NCBI RefSeq assembly: GCF_049701175.1
Contig: NZ_JBNATW010000009.1
Location: 9,904 to 73,903 of the forward strand
Length of the DNA stretch: 64,000 nt
Reading direction: 5' to 3'
From: Thermovenabulum sp.
GTDB lineage: Bacteria > Bacillota > Thermosediminibacteria > Thermosediminibacterales > Thermosediminibacteraceae
The position numbers and the translations under genes are program-made. The notes under the pieces are model-generated. The model did not search any database. It was not told the DNA's origin and was given only the letters and a program-made list of their open reading frames with translations. Positions 23,465 through 56,505 of the stretch are shown piece by piece. Positions within the stretch are counted from its first letter, which is position 1; every line of letters starts with the position of its first letter.

Positions 23465-26400
23465 TCAGGACCTCCCTGGTTTTATCAGCTTTAATATCCT
23501 TATTCTTCTTACCACCCTTGCCGACAGGTCTTCAAATATAGAGTAAAGCACAGGCACAACCACAAGGGTCAAAAGGGTTGAGACGGTCAATCCTCCCAGC
23601 ACGGTAACAGCAAGGGGCGCCTGGATTTCACTGCCTTCACCAATTCCAAGAGCAAGGGGTAAAAGGCCGAGAACTGTCGTAAGTGTTGTCATCATGATGG
23701 GCCTGAGCCTTCTTGGGCCGGCTTCAACTATCGCCTCTTTAACCGTCTTTCCTTTTGCCCGCAACTGGTTAATGTAATCCACCAATACAATGGCGTTGTT
23801 AACCGCAATACCGGCCAGCATTATAACACCGATAAATGCAGGCACGCTAAACGCCCTCCTGCTTAAAAGCAGGCCAAATACAACGCCCGTTATGCAGAAC
23901 GGTATTGCAAACATTATGGTAAATGGATGAAGGAGCGACTCGAACTGGGCTGCCATTACTGCATAAACAAGGAATACCGCAAGAAGCAGGGCTTGGAATA
24001 GATCCGCAAACGATTCCATCATTTCTTTATTCTGGCCTTCAAAACTTATACTGTAGCCCTCTGGCAGATTGATTGAAGAAACTGCTGACTTGATGTCATT
24101 TGTTACTTCACCCAAACTCCTCCCGTAAATATCGGCCGTCACATACACTACTCGCTCCTGATCAACACGATTGATCACATTTGGGCCTTCAGTAATCGTA
24201 AATTTAGCTATGTTTCTAAGCGGCACATTGACGCCCGACGGAGACATCAACGTCATCCCTTCAAGGTCTTCAAGGGTTTTCCTTGAAAGCTCATTTAGTT
24301 GGACGTTTACTTCCACCTCTGTCCCGGCAACCCTGTATTTGGTCGCTTCAACTCCGTTTATTGCAATTCTTACTGTTTGCGCCACCTGGCTTGCATCCAG
24401 GCCGTAGTATGAAGCCCTGTCCTTATCAACTTTTATCCGGACTTCAGGTCTCCCTTCATCAATGGATGTCTCAACATCCCTGGTGCCCGGCACTTTTTTG
24501 ACTATAGCTTTAATTTTTTCGGCAAGGCTCTCAAGTGTAGCAAAATCATCTCCCTTTATGGCAATTTGGACTGGTTTACTGCTTCCTGCCATAGCAGAAC
24601 CCATAGTGCTTATCATAGATGCGCTGTTTATCTCGATTTTTGCCCCGGGGACTTCTCCTATTTTTTGCCTGATTTCTTCAACTACATCCTTAGTTGACCT
24701 CTTCCTTTCGCTGACCGGGACAAGGCGCACGTCCATGCTCGCTATCTCGCCGCTTCCACCCGCCCCAAGGAAGCTCCTTTTTGTATCCGTTCCAACCTGT
24801 GAGGAATACATTTGAACTTCTGGTATTGAAGCAACTATATTTTCTATGGATTTAACCAACTCGTCGGTCTTCTCAACTTTTGTGCCAAGAGGATATTCCA
24901 CACTGATTGATATCCTGCCCTCATCGGTCTCCGGGAAAAATTCCGTCCCCACTAAAGGAACCGCCATTATGCTTATAACAAGAAGCACAACAATTGCAAG
25001 TATTACAATCTTCCTGTGCCCCAGGGCCCACGCAAGAAGCTTTCCATACTTTTCATCTACACTATTGTAAAATCTGTCCATTCCATCGAATATTCTGGCA
25101 AGAAAGCCCTCTTTTTTCTCTTCTGCAGGGGTTACTTTGACCAGACGGGAACTCAGCAAAGGTACGATTGTAATCGCAACAATCAGAGAAGACATGAGAG
25201 AGAATGTGATGGTGAGGCTCATTTCCTTGAATACTACTCCTGCCAGTCCTTTTACAAAGACTATCGGTAAAAATACAGCAACTGTAGTCAGTGTCGATGC
25301 CACTATAGCAAGAGTAACCTCACTTGCTCCAACAGATGCCGCTTCCATGCCGTTAAGGCCTAATTCTCTGTGATGATATATGTTTTCAAGCACAACTATG
25401 GAGCTATCCACCAGCATACCTATTCCCAGGGCAAGGCCGCCGAGGGATATGAGGTTTAGCGTAATGCCGCTGAAATACATTACGACAAATGTGGCTATAA
25501 TTGAAATAGGTATTGATATAGCAATAACTACTGTAGACCTGAAATTATGCAGAAAAAGATATAACACTACCACTGCAAGAATAGCGCCAGCCAGTGCATT
25601 TGACTTGACTCTATTTATCGACCTGTTTATAAAGTCCGATTGGTCCAATATTTGATATAGCTCTATGCCCTTCGGAAGCTCTTTTTTAATTGTTTCAAGT
25701 TCTTTTTTTACTCCATTTGCCACCGCAACCGTGTTAGCGTCACTGGATTTTTGTATAAGTATTCTTAATCCTTCATACTTGTTTATTCTGGAATGGGTCT
25801 TTACATCTTCTGTAGCATCTTTAACATTGGCTATATCGCTTAATCTAACTATAGCCCCCTGTCTGTTAGCTACAGGAAGGTTTTTTATTTCATCGACATT
25901 TTCAAATTCGCCCGTAGTCCTCACTATAAGCTCTCTGCTACCGTAATCTACAGTCCCGCCAGGGAGGTTCAGGTTATTTGCTGCTAGTGCCTGCACAACC
26001 TGGCCAATGCTTATCCCGTACCCGTTCATCTTTTGTGGTGAAAGCAGTACCCTTATCTGGCGCTCTACTCCACCCGTAACCTGGACGCTTGCAACTCCCG
26101 CTACCCTCTCAAGCCTTTTTTCTATCATATCTTCAGCAATCTGCTTCATCAAAAGCGGATCTCTGTCACCCGTCATGCCGTAAATAAGCACCGGCATCAT
26201 AGACGGGTCAAACTTAAACACCAGTGGTTCATCTGCATCGTCCGGCAATCTTTTTTTAACCATATCCACTTTCTCTCTTATATCCGTCACCGCTGTATCG
26301 AGGTCTGTCCCCCAGTTGAAACTCACCGTAATCATCGAAACGTTGGCTTCACTTGATGAAGATATGCTTTTTATGTTTTCTACCCCTGCTATTTCTTTTT

Positions 26401-26602
26401 CAATCGGCTTTGTTATCATTGTCTCTATTTCTTCAGAGCTTGCCCCGGGGTATGTTGTTACAATAACGGCCGTCGGAAGCTGTATATCCGGCAGCAAATC
26501 AACCTGCATTTTGCTAAGTGAAACAAATCCGAGAATAAGAACGATAAGTACTACCATGAGTGTTGTTACGGGCCTTTTTATCGCCGTATCCGTAATTCTC
26601 AT
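23465..26602 (-). CDS. RND (AcrB/AcrD/AcrF family) efflux permease
   Basis: 1045 aa with 12-TM RND topology and two large loops; typical N-terminus MRITDTAIKRPVTTLM. Confidence 0.9.
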   Translation of the reverse strand: MRITDTAIKRPVTTLMVVLIVLILGFVSLSKMQVDLLPDIQLPTAVIVTTYPGASSEEIETMITKPIEKEIAGVENIKSISSSSEANVSMITVSFNWGTDLDTAVTDIREKVDMVKKRLPDDADEPLVFKFDPSMMPVLIYGMTGDRDPLLMKQIAEDMIEKRLERVAGVASVQVTGGVERQIRVLLSPQKMNGYGISIGQVVQALAANNLNLPGGTVDYGSRELIVRTTGEFENVDEIKNLPVANRQGAIVRLSDIANVKDATEDVKTHSRINKYEGLRILIQKSSDANTVAVANGVKKELETIKKELPKGIELYQILDQSDFINRSINRVKSNALAGAILAVVVLYLFLHNFRSTVVIAISIPISIIATFVVMYFSGITLNLISLGGLALGIGMLVDSSIVVLENIYHHRELGLNGMEAASVGASEVTLAIVASTLTTVAVFLPIVFVKGLAGVVFKEMSLTITFSLMSSLIVAITIVPLLSSRLVKVTPAEEKKEGFLARIFDGMDRFYNSVDEKYGKLLAWALGHRKIVILAIVVLLVISIMAVPLVGTEFFPETDEGRISISVEYPLGTKVEKTDELVKSIENIVASIPEVQMYSSQVGTDTKRSFLGAGGSGEIASMDVRLVPVSERKRSTKDVVEEIRQKIGEVPGAKIEINSASMISTMGSAMAGSSKPVQIAIKGDDFATLESLAEKIKAIVKKVPGTRDVETSIDEGRPEVRIKVDKDRASYYGLDASQVAQTVRIAINGVEATKYRVAGTEVEVNVQLNELSRKTLEDLEGMTLMSPSGVNVPLRNIAKFTITEGPNVINRVDQERVVYVTADIYGRSLGEVTNDIKSAVSSINLPEGYSISFEGQNKEMMESFADLFQALLLAVFLVYAVMAAQFESLLHPFTIMFAIPFCITGVVFGLLLSRRAFSVPAFIGVIMLAGIAVNNAIVLVDYINQLRAKGKTVKEAIVEAGPRRLRPIMMTTLTTVLGLLPLALGIGEGSEIQAPLAVTVLGGLTVSTLLTLVVVPVLYSIFEDLSARVVRRIRILKLIKPGRS

Positions 26603-26626
26603 GATTTCACCCCACTTGCTAAATCT

Positions 26627-27874
26627 TCATTGAATTTTCACGGTAGAACCTTCCATCAGCATGTTTTGCCCGCTTATCACAACCATTTCGCCTTCATTAA
26701 GGCCTTCCGTTATTTCAACTCTGTCTCCGTTTGTTACTCCGATCTTGACAAGCCGTTCTTCTGCTTTGCCTTCCTTTACAACATATACCACATTGCCATG
26801 TTTTTTAATCAGCACAGCATCCTTTGGAACCGTAATCACATTTTCCTTTATGCCCCTGACGACATTCACACTTGCAAACATGCCGGGCTTTAAGGTGTGA
26901 TCTTTGTTTTCCATCTCGATTTTTACCTTAAAAAGCCTGCTTGAACCCGATGCCGGCGAAATAATGCTTATTTTCCCCTTTATTTTACCTTCATCCCCAA
27001 GGGCATCTATATTCACTGTTGTTTCCTGCCCATCTTTTATTTTATTAATATCCTCTTCAGGCACATCTATAACTACTTTAACTTTATCTATATTAACTAT
27101 TAAACCAAGCGCCGCTCCTGCCTGGCACATTTCCCCGGGATTTATTTGCTTTGATGAAATCATGCCCGATATAGGCGCCCTTATCACCGAATTCTTTATA
27201 TTTGTTTTTATAAGCTCCACCTGAGCCTGTGCCTGAGCAACCTGTGCTCTCAGTGCTTCAATATTTTTGGGCAGGCGCTCTTCGGTCAGCCTCAATTGTT
27301 CTTTTGCGCTTTCATACTGGCTTTTTGCCACTTTATACTTCAGTTCCATGCTGTCGAATGCCTGCTTAGAAATTGCATCCGCCTCATACAGCGCCTTCAT
27401 GCGCTCATAATCAGCCTTGACGTTTAAATAGTTTGCCTCGGCCTGCTCAAAAGCAGACTTTGCCTGCTCAAGCTGCTGAGGCAGCGTCCCCGATTCATTG
27501 GCAGCAAGGTTTGCTTTTGCCGACGCTAAAGCAGCCTCCGCCTGGGAAAGCTGGTCGTACAGTTCATCTGTCTCAAGTATTACGAGAGGCTCTCCTTCTT
27601 TTACGTAATCACCCACTTCAAAATTTACTTCTTTTACCTTTCCTGAAATTTTGCTTACAATTTTGACCTCAACGCCTGCCTCAATCTGGCCCGTAAAAGT
27701 CGCTATGTCTTCTATTTTATCCTTTTTTGTTTTCATCACTTTTACCGGCACTGCTGTATCATTTTTTGCTTCTTCTTTCTTTTTTGAACATCCAGCAAGA
27801 AGGAATATTGACGCCACAAAGAAAATTAGCAATAGCGGAGCTATTATGTTGGTGTTTTTTCTGCAAAACTTCAT
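26627..27874 (-). CDS. efflux RND periplasmic adaptor (membrane fusion protein, HlyD/AcrA family), lipoprotein
   Basis: Lipobox LLAGC, coiled-coil hairpin, beta-barrel C-terminus. I prefer the ATG at 27874 (MKFCRK...) after GGGGTG. Confidence 0.85.
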   Translation of the reverse strand: MKFCRKNTNIIAPLLLIFFVASIFLLAGCSKKKEEAKNDTAVPVKVMKTKKDKIEDIATFTGQIEAGVEVKIVSKISGKVKEVNFEVGDYVKEGEPLVILETDELYDQLSQAEAALASAKANLAANESGTLPQQLEQAKSAFEQAEANYLNVKADYERMKALYEADAISKQAFDSMELKYKVAKSQYESAKEQLRLTEERLPKNIEALRAQVAQAQAQVELIKTNIKNSVIRAPISGMISSKQINPGEMCQAGAALGLIVNIDKVKVVIDVPEEDINKIKDGQETTVNIDALGDEGKIKGKISIISPASGSSRLFKVKIEMENKDHTLKPGMFASVNVVRGIKENVITVPKDAVLIKKHGNVVYVVKEGKAEERLVKIGVTNGDRVEITEGLNEGEMVVISGQNMLMEGSTVKIQ

Positions 27875-27939
27875 AAAATGCACCCCTTTTACTTTTATGT
27901 AATTGTTATTTTTAATTGTTTTTTAGTCATAACAGAACC

Positions 27940-28227: not shown

Positions 28228-28272
28228 TATGAAAACCTCTTACAGTAGTTTTTTACTCTACTATAAGAGGTT
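28228..28272 (-). terminator. terminator of the riboswitch-controlled ECF operon
   Basis: 13-bp stem (CCTCTTACAGTAG / CTACTATAAGAGG, one mismatch) with T-runs on both strands, just after the S-component stop. Confidence 0.7.
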
Positions 28273-28286
28273 TTTTGTAAAATCAT

Positions 28287-29006
28287 CTATTTAATGCTTT
28301 CCTCATAGTTTATAATCATTTTGTGTTTAAACCGATTTAATATTTTAATAAAGCCTGTGCCGAAAAGCAGGTAAAATGCCGCATTGCCTATGGCGTGAAA
28401 AGTATCAAACCAGAAACTTGCCGCACAGACGGCGATAAAACTCTGCCAGTTTAATGGTTTAACGAAGGTAGTCCACGACCACAAGTTTAAAATCCATCCA
28501 AAAAAATACCCCCATAAAAAGCAGAAAACAGCCATTCCCCATCTGCCTATGTGCGGGAAGAGACGTTTAACGATACCTGCGGATGAGCCAGCAAGACCCC
28601 AAGCAAACATCTGCCACGGTGTCCACGGCCCCTGCCCCAGAAAAAAGTTTGAAACCAAGGCTGCAGTGGAACCTGTCATAAAACCGGCGCTTGAGCCGAA
28701 GACATAACCGGAAGCGATTGCTATAAATGTAGTAGGCTGTATGTTGGGCAGGGCGGCAAAGGCAATCCGGCCTGCTGCGCCAACGGCTCCCAGCACCGCT
28801 ATTACGGCAATTTCTCTAGGAGAGGAAGCGTCCAGTTCAAAACCCAGGTACATCAAACCAACAGCAACGAGGATGATAATAGATGCTGCCAGCCCCCATT
28901 CCCGGGTGATGGAAGCCTTCCCCGACATGGCGACCACCAGAAACACCGGGATAATTGCAAAACCGAGCCAGAATAGAATTCTTGACAACAATTTTTTCAT
29001 AAGCAT
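28287..29006 (-). CDS. ECF-transporter substrate-capture (S) component candidate, corrinoid-related by context
   Basis: 239-aa small polytopic membrane protein rich in G/A/W/F; last gene after EcfT and EcfA-A'. It lacks the CbiM-type MHxxEG N-terminus. Confidence 0.55.
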   Translation of the reverse strand: MLMKKLLSRILFWLGFAIIPVFLVVAMSGKASITREWGLAASIIILVAVGLMYLGFELDASSPREIAVIAVLGAVGAAGRIAFAALPNIQPTTFIAIASGYVFGSSAGFMTGSTAALVSNFFLGQGPWTPWQMFAWGLAGSSAGIVKRLFPHIGRWGMAVFCFLWGYFFGWILNLWSWTTFVKPLNWQSFIAVCAASFWFDTFHAIGNAAFYLLFGTGFIKILNRFKHKMIINYEESIK

Positions 29007-30700
29007 CTTCCTTTTAACTTTCTTTCCCGCTTTCCAGACGACGCCGGTTTTAACACGGCCAGAGCTTCCTCCGGAGTTAGAATACCGTCAGCAAACCCCC
29101 GGCACATCCTGCCGATCTGGGTAGAATAAAAAATTGACTCTGATAGGACCTGATGTACCGGACCGTCACATATTACTCTGCCACAGAACATCATGATAAC
29201 TCTCGATGCGTATTCTGCTGCAAATTCCATATCGTGGGTAGTCAGCACAACACTTGCCCCCTGCCTGCAATATTCCACCAGCACTTTCCCCATTTCGATC
29301 TTCTGGCGATAGTCCAGCCCCCTGGTAGGTTCATCCAGCAGCAAAAGCTTTGGCCTCGTGACCATCACCGAAGCAAGGGCCACCTTCTGGCGTTCTCCAC
29401 AGCTCAAATCCCGTGGGTTTACATGTCGGAAATCCTGCAATGAAAGCTTATCCATTATTTCATCAACTACACCGTTCGGGCTGATACCGAAGTTTTTTAA
29501 AGTATATAATAATTCTTCTTCTACCGTATCATGAAACAGGTAATCGCTGGGATTCTGGGAAAGGTAACCCACACAGGAATTCCAGGCTCCCCGACTAATG
29601 CTGCTCCCCGGTTCCCTGCCCATCAACATAATCCGGCCGCGCCCTGGTTTTAACAGGCCTGCCATGGTTTTGAGGAGTGTGGATTTGCCTGCTCCGTTGG
29701 CTCCCAGCACGGCAACCAGCTCTCCGGCAAAAAATTGTAAATTTATATCCTGTAATGCTTCCCTGCCATCGGGATATGCAAACCATACTCTGTCCATGCG
29801 TAAGATCGGTTCTTCTTCTCGCACCACAACGGGATGCTTTAAATAAAAATCTCTCGAAGGAGGGCTAAAGTTTTCTCTTAGCATCCGCCGTCCTTCCTTT
29901 ACTGTGACGGGAATCGTATTAAAACCCGTTTTGGCGAAGAAGCGGGCAACAGGCGGGATAAAAGGGTTTTCACAATGCGCCGCCCGGCGTGCCACCTGCT
30001 CAGGCGTGCCCTCATACTTTATTCTTCCACCTTCCATAATCACAACTCTGTCGGCTAAATGAAAACATCTTTCCAGCCGCTGTTCGATTAAAATCACGGT
30101 CATGCCTATGTCTTCATTCAAACGTTTTACAAGATTGAAAAAATCCTCCGCCGCTACTGGGTCCAGTTGAGAAGTGGGCTCGTCAAGGATTAAAACCGAA
30201 GGCTGCATAGCAAGTACTGCAGCAAGGGCGAGTTTTTGTTTTTGACCGCCGGATAGTTTTACTGTAAATTCTTGCCTTAGCTCCGCAAGCCCCAAAAAAC
30301 TCATGACTTCGGCAATACGACGGGCCATCTCCTGCCGTGGAAGGCCCAGGTTTTCCAGACCAAACGCAATTTCGGCTTCCACGCTTGTCATAATCAGCTG
30401 TTTTTCCGGATCCTGGAAGACTATCCCCACCTCCCTGGCTATACTGCGTTGGTCAAGCTGCTTAATATCCTTGCCCCGAAAGAAAACGCTGCCACCTATG
30501 CGGCCACCATAAAAGCCGGGGATTAAGCCAGCGAGCACCCGAGCAAGAGAAGATTTTCCCGAACCAGAACCGCCAGCGATGAGCAAAAACTCCCCTTCTT
30601 CAATATTCATATTTACGTCTTTTAATGCAGGCCTCTGGCTGTCGGGGTAAAAATAAGTCAGATTTTTGATTTGATAAAGGGGCAATTGTGCCACCCCCAA
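28997..30700 (-). CDS. ECF transporter fused double ATPase (EcfA1-EcfA2)
   Basis: Two complete ABC cassettes (GGSGSGKSS...LSGGQKQ...ILDEPTS and GANGAGKST...LSCGERQ...LLDEPTR). Confidence 0.85.
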   Translation of the reverse strand: MGVAQLPLYQIKNLTYFYPDSQRPALKDVNMNIEEGEFLLIAGGSGSGKSSLARVLAGLIPGFYGGRIGGSVFFRGKDIKQLDQRSIAREVGIVFQDPEKQLIMTSVEAEIAFGLENLGLPRQEMARRIAEVMSFLGLAELRQEFTVKLSGGQKQKLALAAVLAMQPSVLILDEPTSQLDPVAAEDFFNLVKRLNEDIGMTVILIEQRLERCFHLADRVVIMEGGRIKYEGTPEQVARRAAHCENPFIPPVARFFAKTGFNTIPVTVKEGRRMLRENFSPPSRDFYLKHPVVVREEEPILRMDRVWFAYPDGREALQDINLQFFAGELVAVLGANGAGKSTLLKTMAGLLKPGRGRIMLMGREPGSSISRGAWNSCVGYLSQNPSDYLFHDTVEEELLYTLKNFGISPNGVVDEIMDKLSLQDFRHVNPRDLSCGERQKVALASVMVTRPKLLLLDEPTRGLDYRQKIEMGKVLVEYCRQGASVVLTTHDMEFAAEYASRVIMMFCGRVICDGPVHQVLSESIFYSTQIGRMCRGFADGILTPEEALAVLKPASSGKRERKLKGRCL

Positions 30701-31587
30701 CTCAACATTAATGGGAAGGATAACAGAAAAATTACGGTGAAAAAGAACACAATTCCCGTATACCCGTCAATAAGATAAGCGAGCCGCGGGTAAAAGCTGA
30801 ATGTGCCCAAGCCTTTGGCCCAACCGTATGTCGCCGCCCCCAGGGCGAGCAGGCTTGCGGTAAGGCAGACGCTATCTCTAAGCCTCCAGACATCACGGAC
30901 ATAGTGTGAACGTCTGCCGCTACCAAAGGCCCTCGCATACATGGCTTCTGCTGTTTCCTGGGAATCTTCCAGTGAAGTTAAAAGCAGTATTTTTATCAAC
31001 ACGGCGTATTTTCCCATTCTTTCTTTTAATGTTCCGGCATTAAAATTGATTCCTCTTGCCGCCTGTACTTCTCTGATACTATCCAGTCGAATTACCATGG
31101 CGGGATACATCCTGGCGGCGAGGGAAAGCACCAGTGCGGACTTGGAAGAAAAGCGAGACAGCAAATCCATTACCCGGTCGGGATGAATCATAAAATTGTA
31201 AAGACAAAAAATACTCATTATATCAAGAAGCCTTAATCCCATGTCCGCACCATAACAAACGGCCTCCAGTGAGACATCCAACTTCCCGAAAACCGGGATA
31301 TACGGTCCGTGCCATATAACGGTTTCGCCGGCGCGCACAGTAACCGCATTTACAATTATGATAACAAAAACTGCCCCCAGGCTTACTTTAAAAAAAGTTT
31401 TCCAGGCATCTATCCCGTCAACAGCTCTTATAGCCGTAACTGTTACCGCCAGCAGCCCCAGTAGGTAAAGCGGGTGGTTGAACATCAATGTCAGCACCAG
31501 CAAAACTGCAATATACATTAATGCCGACAGCGGATGAAGACTCTGCAGAAAGAGCCCTTTTTCTCTATAAAAAAAGCGGTCCAGCAT
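30658..31587 (-). CDS. ECF transporter transmembrane (T) component, CbiQ/EcfT family
   Basis: Polytopic protein with an EcfT-type coupling-helix region (ARMYPAMVIRLDSIREVQAARG). Confidence 0.75.
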   Translation of the reverse strand: MLDRFFYREKGLFLQSLHPLSALMYIAVLLVLTLMFNHPLYLLGLLAVTVTAIRAVDGIDAWKTFFKVSLGAVFVIIIVNAVTVRAGETVIWHGPYIPVFGKLDVSLEAVCYGADMGLRLLDIMSIFCLYNFMIHPDRVMDLLSRFSSKSALVLSLAARMYPAMVIRLDSIREVQAARGINFNAGTLKERMGKYAVLIKILLLTSLEDSQETAEAMYARAFGSGRRSHYVRDVWRLRDSVCLTASLLALGAATYGWAKGLGTFSFYPRLAYLIDGYTGIVFFFTVIFLLSFPLMLSWGWHNCPFIKSKI

Positions 31588-31602
31588 GATAATCTTCTCC
31601 TA

Positions 31603-32382
31603 TCAATTTTGTGGTGCATTCCCTTCCAGACTCTCCCAGGTGGGAGAGGGGGTATTGATGCTCTCGCTGTACCACCAGATTATTCTGTCGCCAGGTTTAA
31701 TCTTTTTCTCACTTGCGGCAGCCATTGGAACTTCATCGTTTACCTTGTACATCCATCCCGACATGCCTTTGTTTGCCTGTCCTGCTATACTTATAACAAA
31801 ACCAGCATACGTCGGGCTGGTGTTATATTCAATTCCGGTGGTATCCAGAGCGCCAAGCACCGTTAAACCCCACCTGTTGTTTTCTTTTACTGCTACGGTT
31901 GCGGGGCCGTATACTATTCTGCCTTCCTTTCCGATAATGGCAATTTCTACCCGACATTCCCCGCTCCCGGCGGATGTTGATTCTGTATCTTTTGTTGCAT
32001 CACCGCTATCAACAGCCGACTCTTTTTTTTCAGAAGCGGTACGAGGCGTATTTACCTCAGAGGAAACCGCAGCACTGCCCATGGGAGTATCCCCTCCACC
32101 GGCAGGCGCAGATTTAGCATTAGAAGTCTGTTTTATTTTTGTCTGTGATGACACATTGACATGCTTTGCCTCTTCAACAACCTTTTTTTCAACGGTTATA
32201 CTCCCCGGACCAGTGCTTGTTTCCTTCTTTATCGAACCATCCGAAAGCGTGCTTTTTTCAACCGTAGCAAGTAACTCTGTATTCCTGGTATGAAAAATTT
32301 TTTGAGTGTATATTACATGCCCCGTTATTATGACAAGCAATAGTGCTATAATAATTGAAAGCTTTACAGCTTGTTTTTTCAC
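31603..32382 (-). CDS. membrane-tethered DUF4430 (transcobalamin beta-domain-like) protein
   Basis: N-terminal TM anchor, S/T/A/G-rich linker, then CRVEIAIIGKEG...GQANKGMSGWMYKVN...GDRIIWWYSESINTPSPTWESL, the DUF4430 signature. Confidence 0.7.
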   Translation of the reverse strand: MKKQAVKLSIIIALLLVIITGHVIYTQKIFHTRNTELLATVEKSTLSDGSIKKETSTGPGSITVEKKVVEEAKHVNVSSQTKIKQTSNAKSAPAGGGDTPMGSAAVSSEVNTPRTASEKKESAVDSGDATKDTESTSAGSGECRVEIAIIGKEGRIVYGPATVAVKENNRWGLTVLGALDTTGIEYNTSPTYAGFVISIAGQANKGMSGWMYKVNDEVPMAAASEKKIKPGDRIIWWYSESINTPSPTWESLEGNAPQN

Positions 32383-32424
32383 TTATATCCCCCACTGTGC
32401 CAAAGTCTTAAAATAAATAGAAAT

Positions 32425-35400
32425 CTATTCGCCTCCCATAATCCGGTAAATTATAACTGCGGTTTCGGCCCTGCCGGCTGCAGCTTTAGGCCGGAATGTA
32501 CCATCTTCAAACCCCTTGAGCAACCCCCCGGCTACGGCGGCTGCTATACTTTCCTCGCTCCAGGACGAAATCAATTTTTTATCTTTAAAATCCGGCTTTT
32601 TCCCTGATGAGGCAAGCCCCAATGAACGGGCGAGGATGACCGCAATTTCTTCCCTCGTAATGGTGCTGTCGGGGCGGAATGTGCCATCTTCATAGCCGTT
32701 GACAATATTCCAGTCTGCAGCGATGTGTACTGCTCTTGCATACCATGCGTCTTCCTTTACGTCTTTGAATTGTCTTTTTCCGCCTGTCTTTGGCTCAAGG
32801 CCCAGCGCTTTGACCAGAAGGCAGACAAACTCGGCCCTGGTCACAGCACGGCCAGGCTCAAAGCGTGTTCCATCAACTCCTGTCACAATTCCGGCTCCGC
32901 CCAGAGCTTCAACAGCATCCATGGCCCATCCGAAAGATGCCTCGTTAACATCAGTAAATGACTTTTTTACCTCCTTTGCAAACACGGCAATTTCGGAGAA
33001 ATGTTCTAACTTGGCCAGAATAACACCTTTTTGCAAGTCCACCACAGCAGGGATAACCGCCCACCTGCCGCCTGCTTTATCGTACCAGGCAAGGGCCAGG
33101 TTTTCCGGTTTTACCAGGGGTGGAATGGCAATTCTTATGGCCACTGTTACAGGCACAGTAAAAGAGGTTCCATCCGGGCCAAATTCATAAATCCCCGATA
33201 AAGCTTTGTATCCGGCAGGAACTGCGCTCAAGCCTCTATTGCCAGCGATTTTCTCAGTCGATGGCAGACTGGTCTCTTTGATCGATATTACCTCATCCTT
33301 TTTCAATGCACCAGCCGGAATGATAAGGGCTATTTCCTCTTTGTTATCGACAATGATTGCCCCTGTTGAAGCGGTTACCTTCTTCTCCAGATCAACCGTA
33401 TTTTGAAGAAGCATTTCCTTTAAATTCAAAAATTCACTGCGTTTAAACGGTTCACGGTTTCCAACGATCACTACCGATTTGTTTATTTCTTCAAAGCCCG
33501 CCGCATCTTTCGTATTCGCTTTTATTTCAAGCAATTGGTCGATTTTTTCAAGTGCCTTCAGCGCTTCATCGGAAACCTGCAAAGCCTGCGGGAGTTTTTT
33601 ATTCTGTTCTACAAAGTTGGGAGAGATCGCGTCTTCCTGTTGCTGAATCACTTTTTTGTTTACCAGTTCTTCCCACGTGGGGCCTGTAGAATTTATGTCT
33701 GTACTGTACCACCAGATGATTTCATCACCGTCATTTATAGCAAATTTGGAGGCCAGGACAGAAGGTACCTTGCCGTTGACTTTATACATCCATCCATTCA
33801 TGCCACTGTTGGCCTGGCCTTCAATGCTCTTGACAAAGCCGTTATCATCAACATAATCAAGGCCAGTAGCGTCAAGGGCTCCCAGTGCTGTCAGCCCCCA
33901 TCTTCCATCTGCCATTACGGTGACTGAACGGGGGCCAAAAAGCAGCTCACCATCTTTGCCCACCACCGCGATATCTACGGTGCACCTAACCTGATTAGAA
34001 ACGGGCTGCGAAGATCCCATCGGTTCAACTTCCCCATCAATGAGAATAAATGCGCTTAGAGCTTCCGCAGCGTCAAGAATATTCCCCATTGCACCGAAAC
34101 TGCCATCGGAATTCAGTGCTTTCTGCATCATGTAGTCAACAGGAATGAAGCCCTGGCTGCTTTTCCAGTCTGCAGGGTCCATGCCCAATTTCTTTAACGT
34201 AACAATTACCTCGGCCGTATCCACCACCGGATCATCCGGATAGGGTTGTGTGGTATAGACGCTACCGTCGGGCTGCAATTGTTTTTTAAGATAAGCAAGC
34301 CCTTTTTCTACGGCATCCTGGACCTGCTTGTCTTCGGAAGCGTTGGGCAGGTATGTCAGTGCCCGAATAGCCTGGGCTGTTGACATAAAGTCGGGGAAAA
34401 ACACACCATCCCATACTTCTCCCCAGGCACCGGACGTATCTCCGGATGAGCTCTGCTTCCCCAGTATGTAGCTTCGCGCTTCAGCAGTATTTATTTCATT
34501 TATCTTTTCCGCTTCTCCCAGCGCGATATACGCCCACATGTCGCTGTAAACGCTGTTGTCAAAGCCTTTTGAAGAATGCCTTTCTTTTAAAAGATTTACA
34601 AGCCTGTTTACCCTGTCCGCATCCCCCCAGAGGTTTAAAACCAGTATTTGCTGGGCAATGGTCTTTGTCTTCGATCTTTTTACCCAGGCGGAATCGGCAC
34701 CGGCGTAATCATTATATGTCTTTCCCAGTGATTTCAGGGCTATGAGGGTTTCGGCCGTTGCAAAGGTGCTGTCCCACTGGGCTTTTATGGCCGCGGTCTC
34801 GGCGTCCTGGATGTCCTGCAGGTAAGTGAGGCCGCCCTGAATGGCATTATAGATATCGCTGCTGGTATCGCGAGCCGCGTCAAAATAACTGAGGGCCGTG
34901 AGCACCTGTGCCGTCAAGTCGGGCTCTTCAGGATAATAGCCGCCCCAGGCGACCCCTGCTTCATTACCCCAGCTATCCTTATGCGGGCGTCTAAATTTAT
35001 TTAGATAGTTAAAAGCCTGTTGCTGGTCTATCAGGTTGAGTTTACCTGCCTTGCCAAGGGCGGTCAGGACCATCACATTGTCATAAATGCTATTACCAAA
35101 ATAAATTGAATCGCCGTCAGTTTTCTTTTTTTCCGCAATAGCTTGGGCAAGAGTGTCAATATTATTAGATTTCGGGTCTACCGCTCTAAGGGCGATCAGC
35201 TCTTTTGCAAGGTAGACGGCATCGAGAACGGTGGCGTTACTCGCAGCAGCGTCAGCGGAGGTGATGACTATATCCTTTAGAGACTTCCCGCCGTATACCC
35301 ATTTGGACAGGTCTTCCCCTGCGTCGGATAGAGCTTCCACACAGCGGTAGTCGAAGCTCCACCCCTGCGCATCATAAGCCAGAGACCCTTTTAAATAACG

Positions 35401-35901
35401 ATCCTTGAAATATGTTACGGCTTTTGAAACACTATTCTGCACCTGATCTTTTACATTGCTATCGGTTATTTCATTCTTTACCATCGCCAGCGCCTGCAGA
35501 GGAGCTTTGGTTCCGTATTCGTTGGCGTAAGGTCCGAAACTGCCATCGGCGTTCTGTGTAGCCAGGATATATGTAATCAGGCTGTTATGATTGCCAAGGA
35601 GATCGGCAATTTTCTGAATTTCCTCCTTCAGACTTTCACCATTCCTGGACCATTTTTCCGACGAAAGATCTTCTCCAGCAAGGGTAAGGACGTATGCAGT
35701 GTAGCCGTCAATTTTTTCCCCGGCTTTGTATCTGTCGTTAATAAACTGCACAGCCTTATCAGCTAATTGCTTAGCGGTATAACTTTCAGTCTGCGTGGCA
35801 GCCTGAGCTGCAGTCAGAGCCCCTCCACCAATAGTGATGCTTAATAAAAGGCAAAATACCAGAATAATCGATACCGTACGCTTTTTGGTTTTATATAACA
35901 T
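32425..35901 (-). CDS. very large secreted SLH-anchored protein: alpha/alpha-toroid (prenyltransferase/terpene-cyclase-like repeats) + DUF4430 + linker + 3 SLH domains; candidate surface corrinoid-capture protein
   Basis: Signal peptide. Repeated QxxDGSF/G motifs (QNADGSFG, LQPDGSVY, LNSDGSFG). DUF4430 block at about 33660-33995 (CTVDIAVVGKDG...GQANSGMNGWMYKVN...GDEIIWWYSTDINSTGPTWEEL). Three C-terminal SLH repeats (FTDV..., FKDV..., FKDKK...). Confidence 0.7.
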   Translation of the reverse strand: MLYKTKKRTVSIILVFCLLLSITIGGGALTAAQAATQTESYTAKQLADKAVQFINDRYKAGEKIDGYTAYVLTLAGEDLSSEKWSRNGESLKEEIQKIADLLGNHNSLITYILATQNADGSFGPYANEYGTKAPLQALAMVKNEITDSNVKDQVQNSVSKAVTYFKDRYLKGSLAYDAQGWSFDYRCVEALSDAGEDLSKWVYGGKSLKDIVITSADAAASNATVLDAVYLAKELIALRAVDPKSNNIDTLAQAIAEKKKTDGDSIYFGNSIYDNVMVLTALGKAGKLNLIDQQQAFNYLNKFRRPHKDSWGNEAGVAWGGYYPEEPDLTAQVLTALSYFDAARDTSSDIYNAIQGGLTYLQDIQDAETAAIKAQWDSTFATAETLIALKSLGKTYNDYAGADSAWVKRSKTKTIAQQILVLNLWGDADRVNRLVNLLKERHSSKGFDNSVYSDMWAYIALGEAEKINEINTAEARSYILGKQSSSGDTSGAWGEVWDGVFFPDFMSTAQAIRALTYLPNASEDKQVQDAVEKGLAYLKKQLQPDGSVYTTQPYPDDPVVDTAEVIVTLKKLGMDPADWKSSQGFIPVDYMMQKALNSDGSFGAMGNILDAAEALSAFILIDGEVEPMGSSQPVSNQVRCTVDIAVVGKDGELLFGPRSVTVMADGRWGLTALGALDATGLDYVDDNGFVKSIEGQANSGMNGWMYKVNGKVPSVLASKFAINDGDEIIWWYSTDINSTGPTWEELVNKKVIQQQEDAISPNFVEQNKKLPQALQVSDEALKALEKIDQLLEIKANTKDAAGFEEINKSVVIVGNREPFKRSEFLNLKEMLLQNTVDLEKKVTASTGAIIVDNKEEIALIIPAGALKKDEVISIKETSLPSTEKIAGNRGLSAVPAGYKALSGIYEFGPDGTSFTVPVTVAIRIAIPPLVKPENLALAWYDKAGGRWAVIPAVVDLQKGVILAKLEHFSEIAVFAKEVKKSFTDVNEASFGWAMDAVEALGGAGIVTGVDGTRFEPGRAVTRAEFVCLLVKALGLEPKTGGKRQFKDVKEDAWYARAVHIAADWNIVNGYEDGTFRPDSTITREEIAVILARSLGLASSGKKPDFKDKKLISSWSEESIAAAVAGGLLKGFEDGTFRPKAAAGRAETAVIIYRIMGGE

Positions 35902-36050
35902 ATCTCAACCCACCTTCTCAGATTTAATTTTCTGCAATTATCAAAATTGATTTTAACTCCAGCATGCTAATATGCTGTTTTTCTTAAAACACCTCCCCTC
36001 CCCAGGGCTCCCCTCAGAGGTGGGTTGAAACAGACCCAATGATGAAATAA

Positions 36051-36084
36051 AATAAAAACCCTGGCTCCTTAAGATAAGCCAGGG
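36051..36084 (-). terminator. intrinsic terminator forming the expression platform of the cobalamin riboswitch
   Basis: CCCTGGCT-tatcttaagg-AGCCAGGG followed by TTTTTATTTTATTT on the minus strand. Confidence 0.65.
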
Positions 36085-36089
36085 GACAT

Positions 36090-36285
36090 AAGCCAGTGGT
36101 AAACTGTTCCCCATCCTGCGTAGGGAGCACCAGTTTGACAGCAGGCCTCAGGTCTCCTGGCTCGGATTCACTGCTCCCCCACGCCTTCCCAGGTTATTCC
36201 CAGTGGCATGATGTGGGGTCGCTCCTCCTCACAGTGGCGCGACCGCGCCGGATTTTCACCGGCTTCCCTTGTTACCTGCCCGAAT
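36090..36285 (-). promoter_or_regulatory. cobalamin (adenosylcobalamin-type) riboswitch aptamer
   Basis: The minus strand reads AAGGGAAGCCGGTGAAAATCCGGCGCGGTCGCGCCACTGT...GCCACTGGGAATAACCTGGGAAGGCG...AGCCAGGAGACCTG. That is the conserved GGGAA/GGTGAAAATCC core, GCCACTG, and the B12 box. Confidence 0.85.
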
Positions 36286-36300
36286 TATTCATTTGTACAT

Positions 36301-36329
36301 ATTATATTAATAATTCATAGAACCGTCAA
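36301..36329 (-). promoter_or_regulatory. consensus sigma-A promoter driving the riboswitch operon
   Basis: Minus strand TTGACG, 17 nt, TATAAT, about 15 nt upstream of the riboswitch. Confidence 0.6.
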
Positions 36330-36333
36330 TAAG

Positions 36334-37476
36334 TCATCGCTCACCACCAGCAATTCCTGCCTTTTCTTTGTTGCTTGTAGGAAGTAAAATTATAAATATG
36401 TTCAATAAAAACACAAAAACACTTATTAAGCCCAATCGCTTTATAGCCCATAGTATTTCCTCTTCAGATGACCCGAGCAACATTATATTCCGAAGGGGAA
36501 TTATAAAGGAATATAAAGGCCAAATCGCTGCAAATTTCTTTATAGGCTCCGGCATCATATGATAGGGCCATGTAAAACCCGAAGCGAGAAAAGTCGGCAT
36601 AGATAAATAAGCTGTAATCTGAACAGAAAAAAGCGGGTTTTTAGTTAAAATCCCCAGAAATGCACCTATATTGAGACATGAAGTTATAAACGCTGCCGAA
36701 AGTAGAGTTATATCAAATACCTTTTCCCTAACAGGAATTTTAAATAATTTATTGACTGCTAAAATACAAACCAAAAACACAAATATTAATATGGCTAAAT
36801 ATATAAACATTCTTGTTATATAAATTTCCATTAGCTTTTTGCCGTTTTTTTCTTGAGAAGCGTCAACAGCAATTGTCCTCGCCATATTTAGAACAGATAT
36901 TTCTAGAAATATTGCTCCTATTAGGCCGGGAATCAGAAAATAGCTGTAGTTATATGCAGGATTCCCGAGAACCCTTGTGGTAAAGCCAAGAGGCATTGCT
37001 AAATTCTTGCTGTATTCGGGCGGATAACCTAAGGACTCAATCTTTTTTATAAGAATTCCCACTCCCAGGCTTTGAAGTATTTCGGAGGCTCTGGTTAAGG
37101 CATTGTTTCCAACAATCAGGTTGTTTTCGTTACATATAACAAGAACTCTCGTATCCTCGCCTTTTTTTACTTTAGAAGAAAATTCCGGAGGGAATACTAA
37201 AGCCATTCTCACACTGCCCTGCTGTATCAAATTTTTAAGCTCAACCTCATCCTTAGGGAAATACCTTATATCGTATTTTTCATTATTCTCAAAGTAATTT
37301 ATGATCATTCTGCTCAATGAAGAATTATCAAGGTCTAAAATCGCCGTAGGTATAGATTTTACTACACCAGGGCTGTAATACCAGGAAAAAAGCACGGTAA
37401 AAATTACGGGTGTTATAACAAGTGCTATCACAAGTAATTTATCTTTCTTCAGATTCATCAACTCTCTTTTAAGCAT
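36334..37476 (-). CDS. ABC-2 type transporter permease
   Basis: N-terminal TM, large extracytoplasmic loop, C-terminal 5-TM bundle (YhhJ/YbhS-like layout). Confidence 0.7.
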   Translation of the reverse strand: MLKRELMNLKKDKLLVIALVITPVIFTVLFSWYYSPGVVKSIPTAILDLDNSSLSRMIINYFENNEKYDIRYFPKDEVELKNLIQQGSVRMALVFPPEFSSKVKKGEDTRVLVICNENNLIVGNNALTRASEILQSLGVGILIKKIESLGYPPEYSKNLAMPLGFTTRVLGNPAYNYSYFLIPGLIGAIFLEISVLNMARTIAVDASQEKNGKKLMEIYITRMFIYLAILIFVFLVCILAVNKLFKIPVREKVFDITLLSAAFITSCLNIGAFLGILTKNPLFSVQITAYLSMPTFLASGFTWPYHMMPEPIKKFAAIWPLYSFIIPLRNIMLLGSSEEEILWAIKRLGLISVFVFLLNIFIILLPTSNKEKAGIAGGER

Positions 37477-38657
37477 TATTCAACCACCGCTTTCCTTTTT
37501 CTCCCAAAAAGAATAAGAGCTAAAAAGATAGCTGCAAAAACTGCAAAAAAATATATTAAAAGAGCGTTGAAGTTGTAAATATATACATCCTTATTTATTC
37601 CCGTCGCCATAATGCTTTTAACAGGATCAGCAAAATAGTATAAAGGTATTAGTTTTGCAAGTTTGCCTAATAAAGGAGGCATTGCAAGGGTTGGCCAGGT
37701 ATAACCGCAGTAAATAAGGGTAGGAAGCACTAAAAACATAGCCACTTCTGTTGAAGAAATCTGATCGCGGAAAATTATTGATGATATTACCCCAATAGCC
37801 GAGATAGTAAGAGTAAAAGGCAGGGATAAGACAGCAATACCTTTTACAGCTTCAATTTTCCCGAGCAAAAAGTATTTTATAGAAAGGAAATATGTTAGAT
37901 TTAAAAAGAATGCTCCTGTCATCGCATGAAAGACAAGTTTTCCCATAACAAATTGAAGCCTATCTAAAAAATTCATTTCTTTTGAAAAAACTTTGTATTT
38001 TGAGCCATTGATTGAAGTCGCTGCTCCGAGAACGATAGAAATCTGAAATAAAGAAGCTATTGCACCAGGCATTAAAAACTTGCCGTAATTTCTCGTTGGA
38101 TTATACCAAACCCTTTTTTCGAAGGGCAGGCCCAACACAAAATTTTTTGCCTTATCCGGCTGCACTCCTTTTGCCTCTAAATAATTTACCGCAATCCCGG
38201 CATTTACCGTCATCAAGATTTCAGCACTTTTTTCAAGGCAAATGCTTGAAATAGACATGTTTGTTCCGTTAACAATGATAAGAACCTTAGGCGACTTTTG
38301 ATTTTTTACATCCTTTTCAAGGCCTTCAGGTATAAAAACAACCACGTCCACTTTCCCGGATTTTATTAGACCTTCTAAATTTTTATCCTCATCAAGATAA
38401 TAATTCACTTTAAAAGTTTCATTGTTTTCAAAATACCATATTATCTTCCTGCTGAGAGAAGTGTTGTCCAAATCTACTACTGCTGTACTTACACCCTTTA
38501 CAACGCCGGGCAAATACATATAGCAGAGCACCAATGAAACCAGAGCTGGTATCAAAATAACCGCCAAAATATACTTTGGGTCTTTAAATATCCTTAAAAT
38601 CTCTTCCTTTAAGCTTTTTATAAAATAAATCAATTCGAATAACCCCCTGAAATCCAT
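37476..38657 (-). CDS. ABC-2 type transporter permease (paralog of the neighbour)
   Basis: Same architecture as 36334..37476, with shared motifs (DLDNSSLSR / DLDNTSLSR). Confidence 0.7.
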   Translation of the reverse strand: MDFRGLFELIYFIKSLKEEILRIFKDPKYILAVILIPALVSLVLCYMYLPGVVKGVSTAVVDLDNTSLSRKIIWYFENNETFKVNYYLDEDKNLEGLIKSGKVDVVVFIPEGLEKDVKNQKSPKVLIIVNGTNMSISSICLEKSAEILMTVNAGIAVNYLEAKGVQPDKAKNFVLGLPFEKRVWYNPTRNYGKFLMPGAIASLFQISIVLGAATSINGSKYKVFSKEMNFLDRLQFVMGKLVFHAMTGAFFLNLTYFLSIKYFLLGKIEAVKGIAVLSLPFTLTISAIGVISSIIFRDQISSTEVAMFLVLPTLIYCGYTWPTLAMPPLLGKLAKLIPLYYFADPVKSIMATGINKDVYIYNFNALLIYFFAVFAAIFLALILFGRKRKAVVE

Positions 38658-39685
38658 TAAAATCTCACAAAGGCTGTCATCCCCGGCCTCATTAATTCTC
38701 TGCCTTCCAATAATTCAACCTTCACCTCAAAGGTCATTATATCCTGTGACCCGTTATCATTGGTTGCTCTTTTTACAGCAAAATCAGGATTTTCGCTTAT
38801 CCTTTTCACTTTACCTCTAAAAGACTTGTCAGGATAAGCCATCACCTTTATCACAACTTCCTGACCGACCTTCACCTTGGATAAATCTTTTTCACTGACA
38901 TTAACCTTTATCCAAACATCATCAAGGTTTGTTACAGTAGCTATGGGCATCCCTGTAGAAACAAGTTCACCTTCGTCGCAATAAATCTCCGTTACTGTAC
39001 CATTTATTGGTGACAATACCTTTGTGTCTTTAAGATAGCTGTCTACTTCCTGAATCCCTGCAAGTGCCTGCTGATATTTGTCTTTCGCAGCTTCATAAGC
39101 GGCCTTTGCCTGCTCTACAACCGCCTGAGCCGCCTCTATATCTTCCTTGCGCGCCCCTTCTTTTGCCATATCGAGCTTTTGCTTTGCTATGTTCATTTGT
39201 GTTAAGGCTTCATCCAATTTCTGTGCAGGCACTGCTCCATGCTCATAGAGGTCTTTAACCCTTTCATAAGTTTTTACGGTGAGTTCATAATAATCCTCTG
39301 CTTCCTGAATTTCCTGACGCCTTGCACCGTTTTTTGCCTTTTCAAGGGTTGCCTCTGCTGCTTTTAAAGCAGCATAAGCCATATCCACCTGTCCTCTTGC
39401 AGCTTCTGCTAAAGCTTTCGCCTGCTCCCTTTTTGCCTTTAATTCATTGCTTTCGATCTCTGCAATGACCTGCCCTGCATTTACTTTTTGACCCTCTTCA
39501 ACATAGATCTTAGAAATCTTCCCCGGTATTTTTGTGTTAATGTCAACCTCTTTTGCCTCTATTATTCCCCTCACTTCACTGCCCTGCTCTCCCATTACAT
39601 TCGCACTGCTTTTTGCTGTGCATCCTTGAAGAAAAAGTGAAGTAACTATGATTGCTATTGGCAATATTATCCATTTTTTTCTCAT
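38657..39685 (-). CDS. HlyD-family secretion/adaptor lipoprotein
   Basis: Lipobox LQGC, biotinyl-lipoyl-like domain, long coiled coil, beta-barrel C-terminus. Confidence 0.8.
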   Translation of the reverse strand: MRKKWIILPIAIIVTSLFLQGCTAKSSANVMGEQGSEVRGIIEAKEVDINTKIPGKISKIYVEEGQKVNAGQVIAEIESNELKAKREQAKALAEAARGQVDMAYAALKAAEATLEKAKNGARRQEIQEAEDYYELTVKTYERVKDLYEHGAVPAQKLDEALTQMNIAKQKLDMAKEGARKEDIEAAQAVVEQAKAAYEAAKDKYQQALAGIQEVDSYLKDTKVLSPINGTVTEIYCDEGELVSTGMPIATVTNLDDVWIKVNVSEKDLSKVKVGQEVVIKVMAYPDKSFRGKVKRISENPDFAVKRATNDNGSQDIMTFEVKVELLEGRELMRPGMTAFVRF

Positions 39686-55360: not shown

Positions 55361-55441
55361 ACTCGCCCCGCCCATTCTTAGAATTTTTCTATGCTATTTT
55401 AACACAAATTGATGTTTAGCACAATCAGAAATTAGAAATAT

Positions 55442-56390: not shown

Positions 56391-56505
56391 ATCGTTTTAA
56401 TACTTTAATATTATTTTGGAATATTATATATCATTTTTCTATAGATTGCAATATGGCTTTTTACTATTTTCAAAAATTTTTCGTCACAACAGATTGTAAA
56501 AAAAA

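Follow-up and report, generated by a model that had tools for sequence, protein, structure and literature searches.

A riboswitch-controlled operon of Thermovenabulum sp. for the probable scavenging and import of corrinoids, with a predicted transcobalamin-like surface protein and a CbrT-like ECF importer

What does a thermophilic bacterium take up through an operon that places two extracytoplasmic DUF4430 proteins beside an energy-coupling factor (ECF) transporter, and how would these proteins contribute to the uptake? The question is raised by a locus of Thermovenabulum sp. that lies in a 64-kb stretch of contig NZ_JBNATW010000009.1 (contig positions 9,904 to 73,903), which is called the window here and supplies the coordinates used below. 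The operon occupies the minus strand of the window and runs from 36329 to 28228. A preliminary description had seen in it a relay for corrinoids, from capture at the cell surface through a hand-over at the membrane to ECF import, and all of the elements that it listed were found on this strand, displaced by no more than a few bases from the positions it had given. It is likely that the operon serves the scavenging and import of corrinoids (vitamin B12 and cobinamide) in this monoderm, thermophilic member of the Thermosediminibacteria.

Evidence for a link to corrinoids comes from the leader of the operon. A cobalamin riboswitch aptamer at 36127-36292 (-) matches Rfam model RF00174 over its full length (model positions 1-189 of 189) and scores 100.8 bits (E 4.8e-24), well above the gathering score of 31.5, in the covariance-model scan that the preliminary description had proposed. 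The B12 box, AGCCAGGAGACCTG at 36149-36162 (-), occurs once in the window, with 0 occurrences expected by chance. The aptamer is followed by an expression-platform terminator (36049-36084, minus strand), recognized from sequence and folding, that consists of a 9-bp G+C-rich stem (36084-36059) and the T-run TTTTTATTTT. The 5' arm of this terminator, CCCTGGCT, is complementary to the B12-box core AGCCAGG, as read directly from the sequence, and the pairing of the two appears to be the usual antiterminator/terminator alternative of an OFF switch. In other words, a transcription-terminating riboswitch would repress the operon once intracellular adenosylcobalamin is sufficient, and such OFF regulation by B12 fits a role in acquisition. 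Ahead of the leader is a predicted sigma-70-type promoter at 36301-36329 (-), a consensus match only, in which TTGACG-17 nt-TATAAT agrees with 11/12 consensus positions. The promoter, the B12 box and the leader terminator are thus all present as previously claimed.

Five co-directional genes follow, separated by gaps of 43 and 15 nt or joined in two overlaps. All on the minus strand, they encode a secreted surface protein of 1158 aa, referred to as BIG (32425-35901; open reading frame (ORF), Pfam and AlphaFold2 model); a transmembrane (TM)-anchored DUF4430 protein of 259 aa (31603-32382; ORF and Pfam); EcfT, a T component of the CbiQ family, of 309 aa (30658-31587; PF02361); a fused EcfA-EcfA' double ATPase of 567 aa (28997-30700; TIGR04520 and TIGR04521); and a CbrT-like S component of 239 aa (28287-29006; phmmer against the Protein Data Bank, PDB). 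The five lengths and the tight or overlapping arrangement agree with the preliminary description, and Pfam and NCBIfam searches returned the domains that it had named, namely three S-layer homology (SLH) repeats, two DUF4430 domains, EcfT, the double ATPase and an S-component-like protein. An intrinsic terminator with a 17-bp stem closes the operon at 28228-28272 (-), also as described before; its hairpin has a folding energy of -22.6 kcal/mol, and 0/200 shuffles fold as well (z = -6.4).

What is the transporter expected to carry? EcfT matches PF02361 with E 7e-13, and the fused ATPase has two ABC_tran stretches and scores 392.6 bits against TIGR04520 and 380.2 bits against TIGR04521, both above cut-off. 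A single operon therefore holds EcfT, two EcfA-type ATPase domains and an S component, which is the composition of a group-I ECF transporter with a dedicated module. A phmmer search of the S component against all PDB chains gave one significant match, 6fnp_A (E 1.3e-14, 164 residues, 66-229), and no CbiM, BioY, RibU, ThiT or FolT chain. The 6FNP structure is ECF-CbrT of L. delbrueckii, by which cobalamin and cobinamide are transported and hemin is not (PMC5997447); chain A, of 182 aa, is taken as CbrT from its length. In Pfam, the S component scores 28.7 bits against ECF_trnsprt, just under the cut-off, and has no match to CbiM (PF01891). Homology to the characterised CbrT places it in the CbrT family, with a predicted specificity for B12. 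A dedicated T component and fused AA' module combined with CbrT corresponds to the annotation CbrUVT in comparative genomics (PMC6593275). The first 61 residues of the S component form an N-terminal extension of ~60 aa with two extra TM helices predicted from hydropathy. This extension aligns in the closer relatives only, and L. delbrueckii CbrT is without it.

The CbiQ-like T component brings up another reading, in which the operon encodes a CbiMNQO-like importer of cobalt (or nickel) for de novo B12 synthesis and the DUF4430 proteins are unrelated wall proteins. EcfT matches the "CbiQ cobalt transport" family, the ATPase matches cbiO models, and B12-riboswitch control is common among cobalt ECF transporters (PMC11477304). 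However, EcfT reaches 43 bits against the CbiQ model TIGR02454, below the cut-off of 111.8, and the S component matches CbrT and lacks the PF01891 match that a true CbiM in a related locus displays with E 3.6e-56 (L030, 8034-8879, ahead of the CbiZ gene described below). Furthermore, the operon has neither a CbiN gene nor a CbiN-sized ORF, and genes for DUF4430 and toroid proteins are syntenic with ECF genes across families. A CbiM-type cobalt transporter, an outcome that the preliminary description had itself raised, was rejected because the S component is CbrT-like without PF01891 and CbiN is missing, and cobalt import is considered highly improbable.

Further evidence for corrinoid uptake comes from the relatives of the operon, 45 loci obtained from a scan of one genome per species. 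The closest homologues of BIG were found in Thermovorax subterraneus (87% identity; strain DSM 21563), in metagenome-assembled genomes (MAGs) of Tepidanaerobacteraceae and in Thermosediminibacter (72%), and more distant ones in Moorella, Thermincola, Pelotomaculum, Desulfotomaculum and heliobacteria. Where 300 bp or more are available upstream of BIG, a cobalamin-riboswitch match lies on the same strand, 33-2141 nt upstream, in 35/35 loci. Likewise, EcfT-EcfAA'(-S) comes after BIG in the same order in 33/36 loci with enough downstream sequence. The preliminary description had asked how often proteins with SLH repeats and DUF4430 co-occur with ECF modules and B12 riboswitches, and by these two counts the co-occurrence is near-universal. 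The riboswitches of all 11 loci submitted to Rfam pass with 89-141 bits, and three of them are tandem, with complete aptamers of 122-134 bits each (L010 4388-4960, L034 9085-9625, L035 8960-9624). Tandem aptamers were also seen by nhmmer in L006, L014, L023, L027, L032 and L040; the window has one aptamer. In L003 (9301-9483) and L005 (about 17581-17747), a second cobalamin riboswitch lies directly 3' of the S gene and before another ECF-type ATPase gene, which suggests back-to-back B12-regulated transport units.

Two additional gene associations bear on the substrate. CbiZ, an adenosylcobinamide amidohydrolase that acts in corrinoid salvage and remodelling, is encoded at the head of the riboswitch-controlled unit in five loci (PF01955, E 4e-60; L006 9235-9927, L023 9159-9932, L027 9148-9846, L028 4445-5170, L030 9260-9991); the window operon is without CbiZ and without CbiM. 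A second CbrT-like S paralogue of ~207 aa, 45% identical to that of the window, is encoded between BIG and the small DUF4430 gene in three loci (L028 9734-10333, L029 13549-14172, L030 14558-15184) and may handle another corrinoid. The riboswitch, the CbrT homology and the linkage to CbiZ point to corrinoids, not to heme or cobalt, and the substrates probably include cobinamide and non-cognate cobamides.

Other observations weigh against corrinoid scavenging. Many host lineages, such as Moorella, Desulfotomaculum and Pelotomaculum, are probably corrinoid producers, in which a need for scavenging is not obvious. Three loci, L015, L021 and L038 (of Ca. Desulfopertinax, Desulforudis and a Peptococcaceae MAG, respectively), have BIG and the riboswitch but no ECF genes in the available downstream sequence. 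Lastly, the closest operon that has been studied experimentally, lsa1836-1840 of L. sakei, is tied to heme uptake. It encodes an S component, a fused AA' ATPase and EcfT together with two secreted proteins, one beta-like (DUF4430) and one alpha-like (toroid) (bioRxiv 10.1101/864751). When lsa1836-1840 is deleted, cells supplied with 5-40 uM hemin accumulate 5- to 8-fold less heme, a defect that complementation reverses. The authors of that study say that their S component is without cobalamin-binding residues, and heme scavenging has been proposed for the transcobalamin-like alpha and beta proteins (bioRxiv 10.1101/864751).

Is heme, or a different non-corrin tetrapyrrole, then the substrate of the operon in the window? 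Heme is the strongest rival for the substrate because of the deletion phenotype in L. sakei. However, the effect in L. sakei appeared only at hemin concentrations of at least 1 uM, and that work did not assay B12. In contrast to the heme reading, the present operon and its relatives (35/35) have a cobalamin riboswitch, the riboswitch unit of five relatives includes the corrinoid-specific CbiZ, and the S component matches CbrT, for which hemin is no competitor, as it did not compete with cobalamin uptake by ECF-CbrT (PMC5997447). It appears improbable that heme or a related non-corrin compound is what the operon imports. The two operons also differ in architecture. The alpha and beta parts of L. 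sakei are two small proteins, neither an SLH nor a ZU5-like domain has been reported, no riboswitch is mentioned, and the substrate supported by experiment is heme at micromolar concentrations. In one of the relatives (L042), the minimal riboswitch-beta-alpha-T-AA'-S layout, which has no BIG, is that of lsa1836-1840 behind a B12 riboswitch.

How would the surface proteins take part in corrinoid uptake? AlphaFold2 modelling of BIG with 50 homologues (mean pLDDT 86.8) was used to analyse its fold, with secondary structure assigned by DSSP. From the N-terminus, BIG consists of a signal peptide, two alpha6/alpha6 toroids, a DUF4430/SLBB beta-domain, a helical linker, a ZU5/GAIN-like domain and three SLH repeats; the toroid pair and the ZU5/GAIN-type domain had not been noticed in the preliminary description. 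The signal peptide ends in ...AAQA, and AT follows. Toroid 1 (residues 43-301; 34999-35775, minus strand) has 12 helices by DSSP at a pLDDT of about 90-97 and carries a QNADGSF repeat motif at residue 116. Toroid 2 (residues 327-618; 34048-34923, minus strand), recognized from the model and Foldseek, also has 12 helices, and profile searches detect similarity to squalene-cyclase repeats at residues 324-552. A short linker modelled with low confidence joins toroid 2 to the beta-domain (residues 639-735; 33697-33987, minus strand), which matches PF14478 with E 1.6e-14 and has the conserved motifs GWMYKVN and WWYS. The C-terminal SLH repeats (residues 985-1158; 32428-32949, minus strand) match PF00395 in three stretches (E 3.7e-34) and form the anchor to a cell-wall polymer. 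This region also matches the Sap SLH structure 6bt4 (E 1.5e-12) in a sequence search and 3pyw in Foldseek (TMt 0.85).

The model points to a relationship between BIG and the B12 binders of animals. When it was compared with the PDB by Foldseek, the first match was haptocorrin with cyanocobalamin (4kki, E 1.2e-7), and the next were the transcobalamins 4zrp, 7qbg, 8ixt, 2bb6 and 2bb5 and intrinsic factor (3kq4, 2pmv). Matches to these three kinds of binder had E values of 1e-7 to 6e-5, a probability of 1.0 and ~400 contiguous alignment columns, the full length of the binder. From this contiguity and length it follows that the match covers toroid 2 together with the beta-domain, and these two domains are modelled as a transcobalamin-like unit. 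BIG has the arrangement that characterizes transcobalamin, intrinsic factor and haptocorrin, i.e. an alpha6/alpha6 toroid followed by a DUF4430/SLBB domain. TCN proteins have DUF4430 as their C-terminal domain (PMC4350170), and this report and the Foldseek ranking both back the earlier statement that DUF4430 has the fold of the transcobalamin beta-domain.

The likeness was seen in structure comparison, but sequence-profile searches did not reach any of the three binders, and these results weigh against a binder. BIG has no match to Pfam Cobalamin_bind (PF01122). Neither a single-sequence search nor the 50-sequence profile of the BIG family reaches a transcobalamin, intrinsic factor or haptocorrin chain; with the full-length family profile, the matches are to SLH proteins and to squalene cyclases. 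A 37-sequence profile of the beta-domain likewise reaches none of these chains, only 3u7z with E 0.8. Global TM-scores of BIG to transcobalamin are low (TMt about 0.39, root-mean-square deviation about 12 A), presumably because the orientation between the domains differs. The kinship of BIG with the three binders, as modelled, is thus one at the level of the fold and of Pfam DUF4430 only.

The squalene-cyclase similarity suggests an alternative in which the toroids are enzymes, similar to terpene cyclases or prenyltransferases, that act on wall or lipid substrates, with a link to B12 that is regulatory only. Toroid sequence and fold do resemble the repeats of squalene-hopene cyclase and drimenyl diphosphate synthase. 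However, a DxDD motif is missing from BIG, whose 1158 residues include just 4 Cys (17, 187, 640 and 1027), none of which is in a toroid active-site context; BIG is secreted, no isoprenoid genes are nearby, and the top fold matches are non-enzymatic B12 binders. A terpene cyclase or prenyltransferase was rejected because DxDD and the context of a Zn-binding triad are missing from a secreted protein, and an enzymatic role of this kind is the least credible of the readings considered here.

The number of toroids varies among relatives. BIG proteins with 1, 2 or 3 toroids have 861, 1158 and 1474 aa, respectively, and keep a single beta-domain; the ~861-aa form occurs in L020, L023 and L027, and the ~1474-aa form in L028 and L030. 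Unequal recombination between toroid repeats could account for this variation. In about 20 loci there is also a gene for a secreted protein of ~460 aa in which a toroid is combined with a Cu_amine_oxidN1 domain, in other words a stand-alone alpha protein.

The second DUF4430 protein of the operon appears to be held at the membrane. Hydropathy places a TM anchor that looks uncleaved at residues 1-30 of the 259-aa protein, which has no lipobox Cys for lipidation. The anchor is followed by a low-complexity linker of ~120 aa rich in S, T, K and E and then by a DUF4430 beta-domain (about residues 146-250; 31633-31947, minus strand; PF14478 E 1.6e-16). This beta-domain and that of BIG are paralogues with about 50-57% identity. 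Homologues of the 259-aa protein have the same plan, with a linker whose sequence drifts, and the protein reads as a beta-domain on a flexible membrane tether. A lectin match of this protein in the PDB (phmmer, E 1e-3) was dismissed as spurious because it falls in the low-complexity linker.

A model for corrinoid uptake can be outlined from these features. Under B12 limitation, BIG would be secreted, toroid 2 and its DUF4430 domain would act as a corrinoid clamp, and the SLH repeats would hold the protein at the wall, with one extra toroid. The membrane-rooted 259-aa protein could accept or co-bind the ligand with its paralogous beta-domain on a tether of ~120 residues. A CbrTUV-type group-I ECF importer, formed by the CbrT-like S component, EcfT and the fused EcfA-A', would then move the corrinoid into the cytoplasm with ATP. 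Corrinoid binding by the toroid/beta modules is suggested by their modelled fold. It may be that transfer is ordered from the wall to the tether and on to the S component, the "three-stage relay" of the preliminary description, and that the spare toroid has a role in it.

One objection to an ordered transfer is that BIG might merely retain corrinoids at the wall, as a store or a shield that may include self-made corrinoids, and that the importer works alone. ECF-CbrT needs no extracellular partner in proteoliposomes, and mammalian binders free B12 only after proteolysis (PMC5997447), so that tight clamps would be poor donors. BIG and the riboswitch persist without adjacent ECF genes in the three loci mentioned above, and many hosts are probably corrinoid producers. 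Retention is a milder rival than heme. It does not account well for the order relative to the ECF genes, which is strictly kept in 33/36 loci with tight or overlapping spacing, or for the membrane-tethered beta paralogue, which is hard to explain without a role in transfer; B12-OFF regulation, moreover, fits acquisition. A wall-bound store without an ordered relay is considered unlikely, though less so than heme.

Is BIG permanently fixed to the wall? Residues about 810-976 (32974-33474, minus strand), which precede the SLH repeats, form a beta-sandwich similar to ZU5 and GAIN-B domains. It scores 20.8 bits against ZU5, with a cut-off of 21, and when modelled alone it has a pLDDT of 87.8 and a pTM of 0.82. 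Foldseek matched this domain to the ZU5 domains of ankyrin and UNC5b (E 2e-6 to 4e-5, TMt about 0.65) and to GAIN domains of adhesion GPCRs (4dlo with E 1e-3, then 8oek, 8ikj and 4dlq); no fold class besides ZU5 and GAIN was significant in this search. The domain contains a predicted autocleavage motif, H967-F968-S969 (32995-33003, minus strand), with the cut between F968 and S969, which was recognized from sequence and conservation. The motif lies in the turn between the last two strands (960-967 and 970-976). Across 50 family members, H is conserved in 42/50, F in 43/50 and S in 40/50 with T in a further 4/50. Speaking against cleavage, R replaces the H in 7/50.

The same residues are known from related domains. 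HFS, cut after F, is the autocleavage site of PIDD ZU5 domains (PMC3210808), and ZU5 autoprocessing in bacterial surface proteins was suggested earlier by Zhang et al. 2012 (PMC3482391). Microbial GAIN (MAIN) domains cleave between F and S, and the resulting fragments stay non-covalently joined (bioRxiv 10.64898/2026.05.12.724683). In their parent proteins, MAIN domains separate the secreted ectodomain from an anchor of the sortase, wall or SLH type, and release of surface proteins has been proposed as their function (bioRxiv 10.64898/2026.05.12.724683). The ZU5/GAIN-like domain of BIG has this placement, between the secreted ectodomain and the SLH anchor. The fold, the HFS motif and the canonical MAIN order together predict that the binder is nicked from its anchor and potentially releasable. 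By analogy, BIG probably cleaves itself between F968 and S969, leaving a binder that is held non-covalently and is able to dissociate, and it is probably not a simple fixed anchor.

A further, speculative step is that the ectodomain acts as a releasable "corrinophore". A clamp of ~935 aa would be shed by shear or on loading to gather corrinoids away from the cell, or would cross the thin wall to dock with the tethered beta-domain, before the hand-over to the S component. This is an attractive idea that is rather less likely than not. In that case, a second binding site might arise where the tethered beta-domain joins the spare toroid. If true, the corrinophore would bring a hemophore-like logic to vitamin B12 in monoderms, and it would be the first vitamin-binding cargo of a MAIN domain.

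Exposure of BIG at the surface depends on the type of envelope. Members of the Thermosediminibacteria including T. oceani are monoderm by transmission electron microscopy, have a thin wall and hence stain Gram-negative, and are without BamA and lipopolysaccharide (LPS) genes (PMC11448272). The lineage agrees with the Gram-positive-type envelope assumed in the preliminary description, and a monoderm cell makes surface exposure of the SLH protein a reasonable reading. A diderm host with periplasmic SLH anchoring, as for OmpM in Negativicutes, was raised by OEP, AcrB and HlyD genes that flank the operon and was rejected because the lineage is monoderm and lacks BamA and LPS genes. The flanking genes form clusters that resemble tripartite efflux systems, one with ABC-2 permeases, HlyD and OEP and another with HlyD, AcrB, OEP and TetR, so that OEP occurs despite the monoderm lineage. 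The TolC-family OEP genes (PF02321) are located at 39710-41089 (-) and 22263-23462 (-), and their neighbours at 36334-39685 and 23465-27883.

How new is such a system? The preliminary description knew of no characterised SLH-anchored capture protein wired to an ECF module. No characterised protein of this kind was found, and in that respect the statement holds, but the kind of system is already known from a 2007 prediction, the proven CbrT and the similar core in L. sakei. Burroughs et al. 2007 (PMC1796856) predicted that surface proteins with a toroid and SLBB domain, accompanied by a second SLBB paralogue in CbiO/CbiQ operons, are B12 scavengers, and gave a Desulfotomaculum example. The operon in the window falls in this predicted class. 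Their text, in which all claims are computational, is without SLH anchoring, the riboswitch, the ZU5/GAIN-like domain, tandem toroids or a CbrT-type S component. The CbrTUV annotation also exists, having been predicted by Rodionov et al. 2009 as cited in PMC5997447 and PMC6593275. L. delbrueckii ECF-CbrT (6FNP, PMC5997447) shares a homologous S component and ATP-driven ECF import. In contrast to the dedicated module in the window, CbrT of L. delbrueckii uses a shared, general ECF module (group II), and its study included no extracellular partners; the window adds two co-transcribed, extracytoplasmic transcobalamin-like proteins and the N-terminal extension of S.

Comparison with other proteins shows which parts of BIG are additions. 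Eukaryotic transcobalamin, intrinsic factor and haptocorrin have an alpha6/alpha6 toroid and a DUF4430 beta-domain in the same order, whereas bacterial BIG also has a further toroid, a domain of the autoproteolysis type and an anchor to the wall, and the operon contains a separate gene for another beta-domain. MAIN/ZU5 proteins (Brogan & Rudner 2026 preprint; PMC3482391) resemble BIG in the fold, the position of HFS and the domain order, but those described carry adhesins, hydrolases or toxins, and "cobalamin" and "DUF4430" are absent from the preprint text (bioRxiv 10.64898/2026.05.12.724683). The BtuG/BtuH/BtuJ relay of Bacteroides (PMC13616437) is likewise a riboswitch-controlled, multi-protein extracellular capture system that feeds a membrane transporter. 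Its folds are unrelated, however (beta-propeller, DUF4465 and others), and its components are outer-membrane lipoproteins that feed the TonB-dependent BtuB in a diderm. In the searchable literature, no experimental corrinoid binding by a bacterial transcobalamin-like protein, no SLH-anchored multi-toroid architecture, no systematic linkage of BIG operons to riboswitches and CbiZ, and no pairing of a transcobalamin-like binder with a MAIN/ZU5 autoproteolytic domain was found.

Several other features of the window and of the relatives lie outside the operon. A second SLH protein of 920 aa, encoded at 41704-44466 (-), matches PF00395 (E 2e-24) and no other Pfam family, and may be an S-layer or wall protein. 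A SipL/SpoVID-like protein with LysM, encoded at 45873-47474 (-) and matching PF12673 (E 4.5e-67), indicates from its sequence that the organism forms endospores. It is encoded beside a housekeeping block of pth, L25, prs, glmU, purR and ispE. Two T-box leaders (RF00230) at 56081-56392 (-) and 59275-59488 (-) score 119.9 and 97.9 bits, the first with a long model insertion; they lie upstream of ORFs ending at 55375 and 59200. In an Anaeromicrobium MAG (L043), a group II intron catalytic-domain match (RF00029, 52.5 bits) at 55-139 stands beside the cobalamin riboswitch.

The significance of the family is that extracellular capture of cobamides by single-membrane bacteria is an acknowledged gap. 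According to a 2026 review, analogous capture in Gram-positive Firmicutes "remains entirely uncharacterized" (PMC13616437). The BIG operon family is a compact, riboswitch-defined and widely conserved candidate answer, and its thermophile origin should make the components good for structural work. The family bears on whether transcobalamin-like proteins of bacteria have corrinoids as ligands or, as claimed for L. sakei, heme, on whether extracellular partners can load ECF S components, and on whether autoproteolytic MAIN domains serve to release nutrient binders. Its proteins share the fold by which animals carry B12, and animals have been proposed to have acquired this fold from such bacteria (Burroughs et al., PMC1796856).

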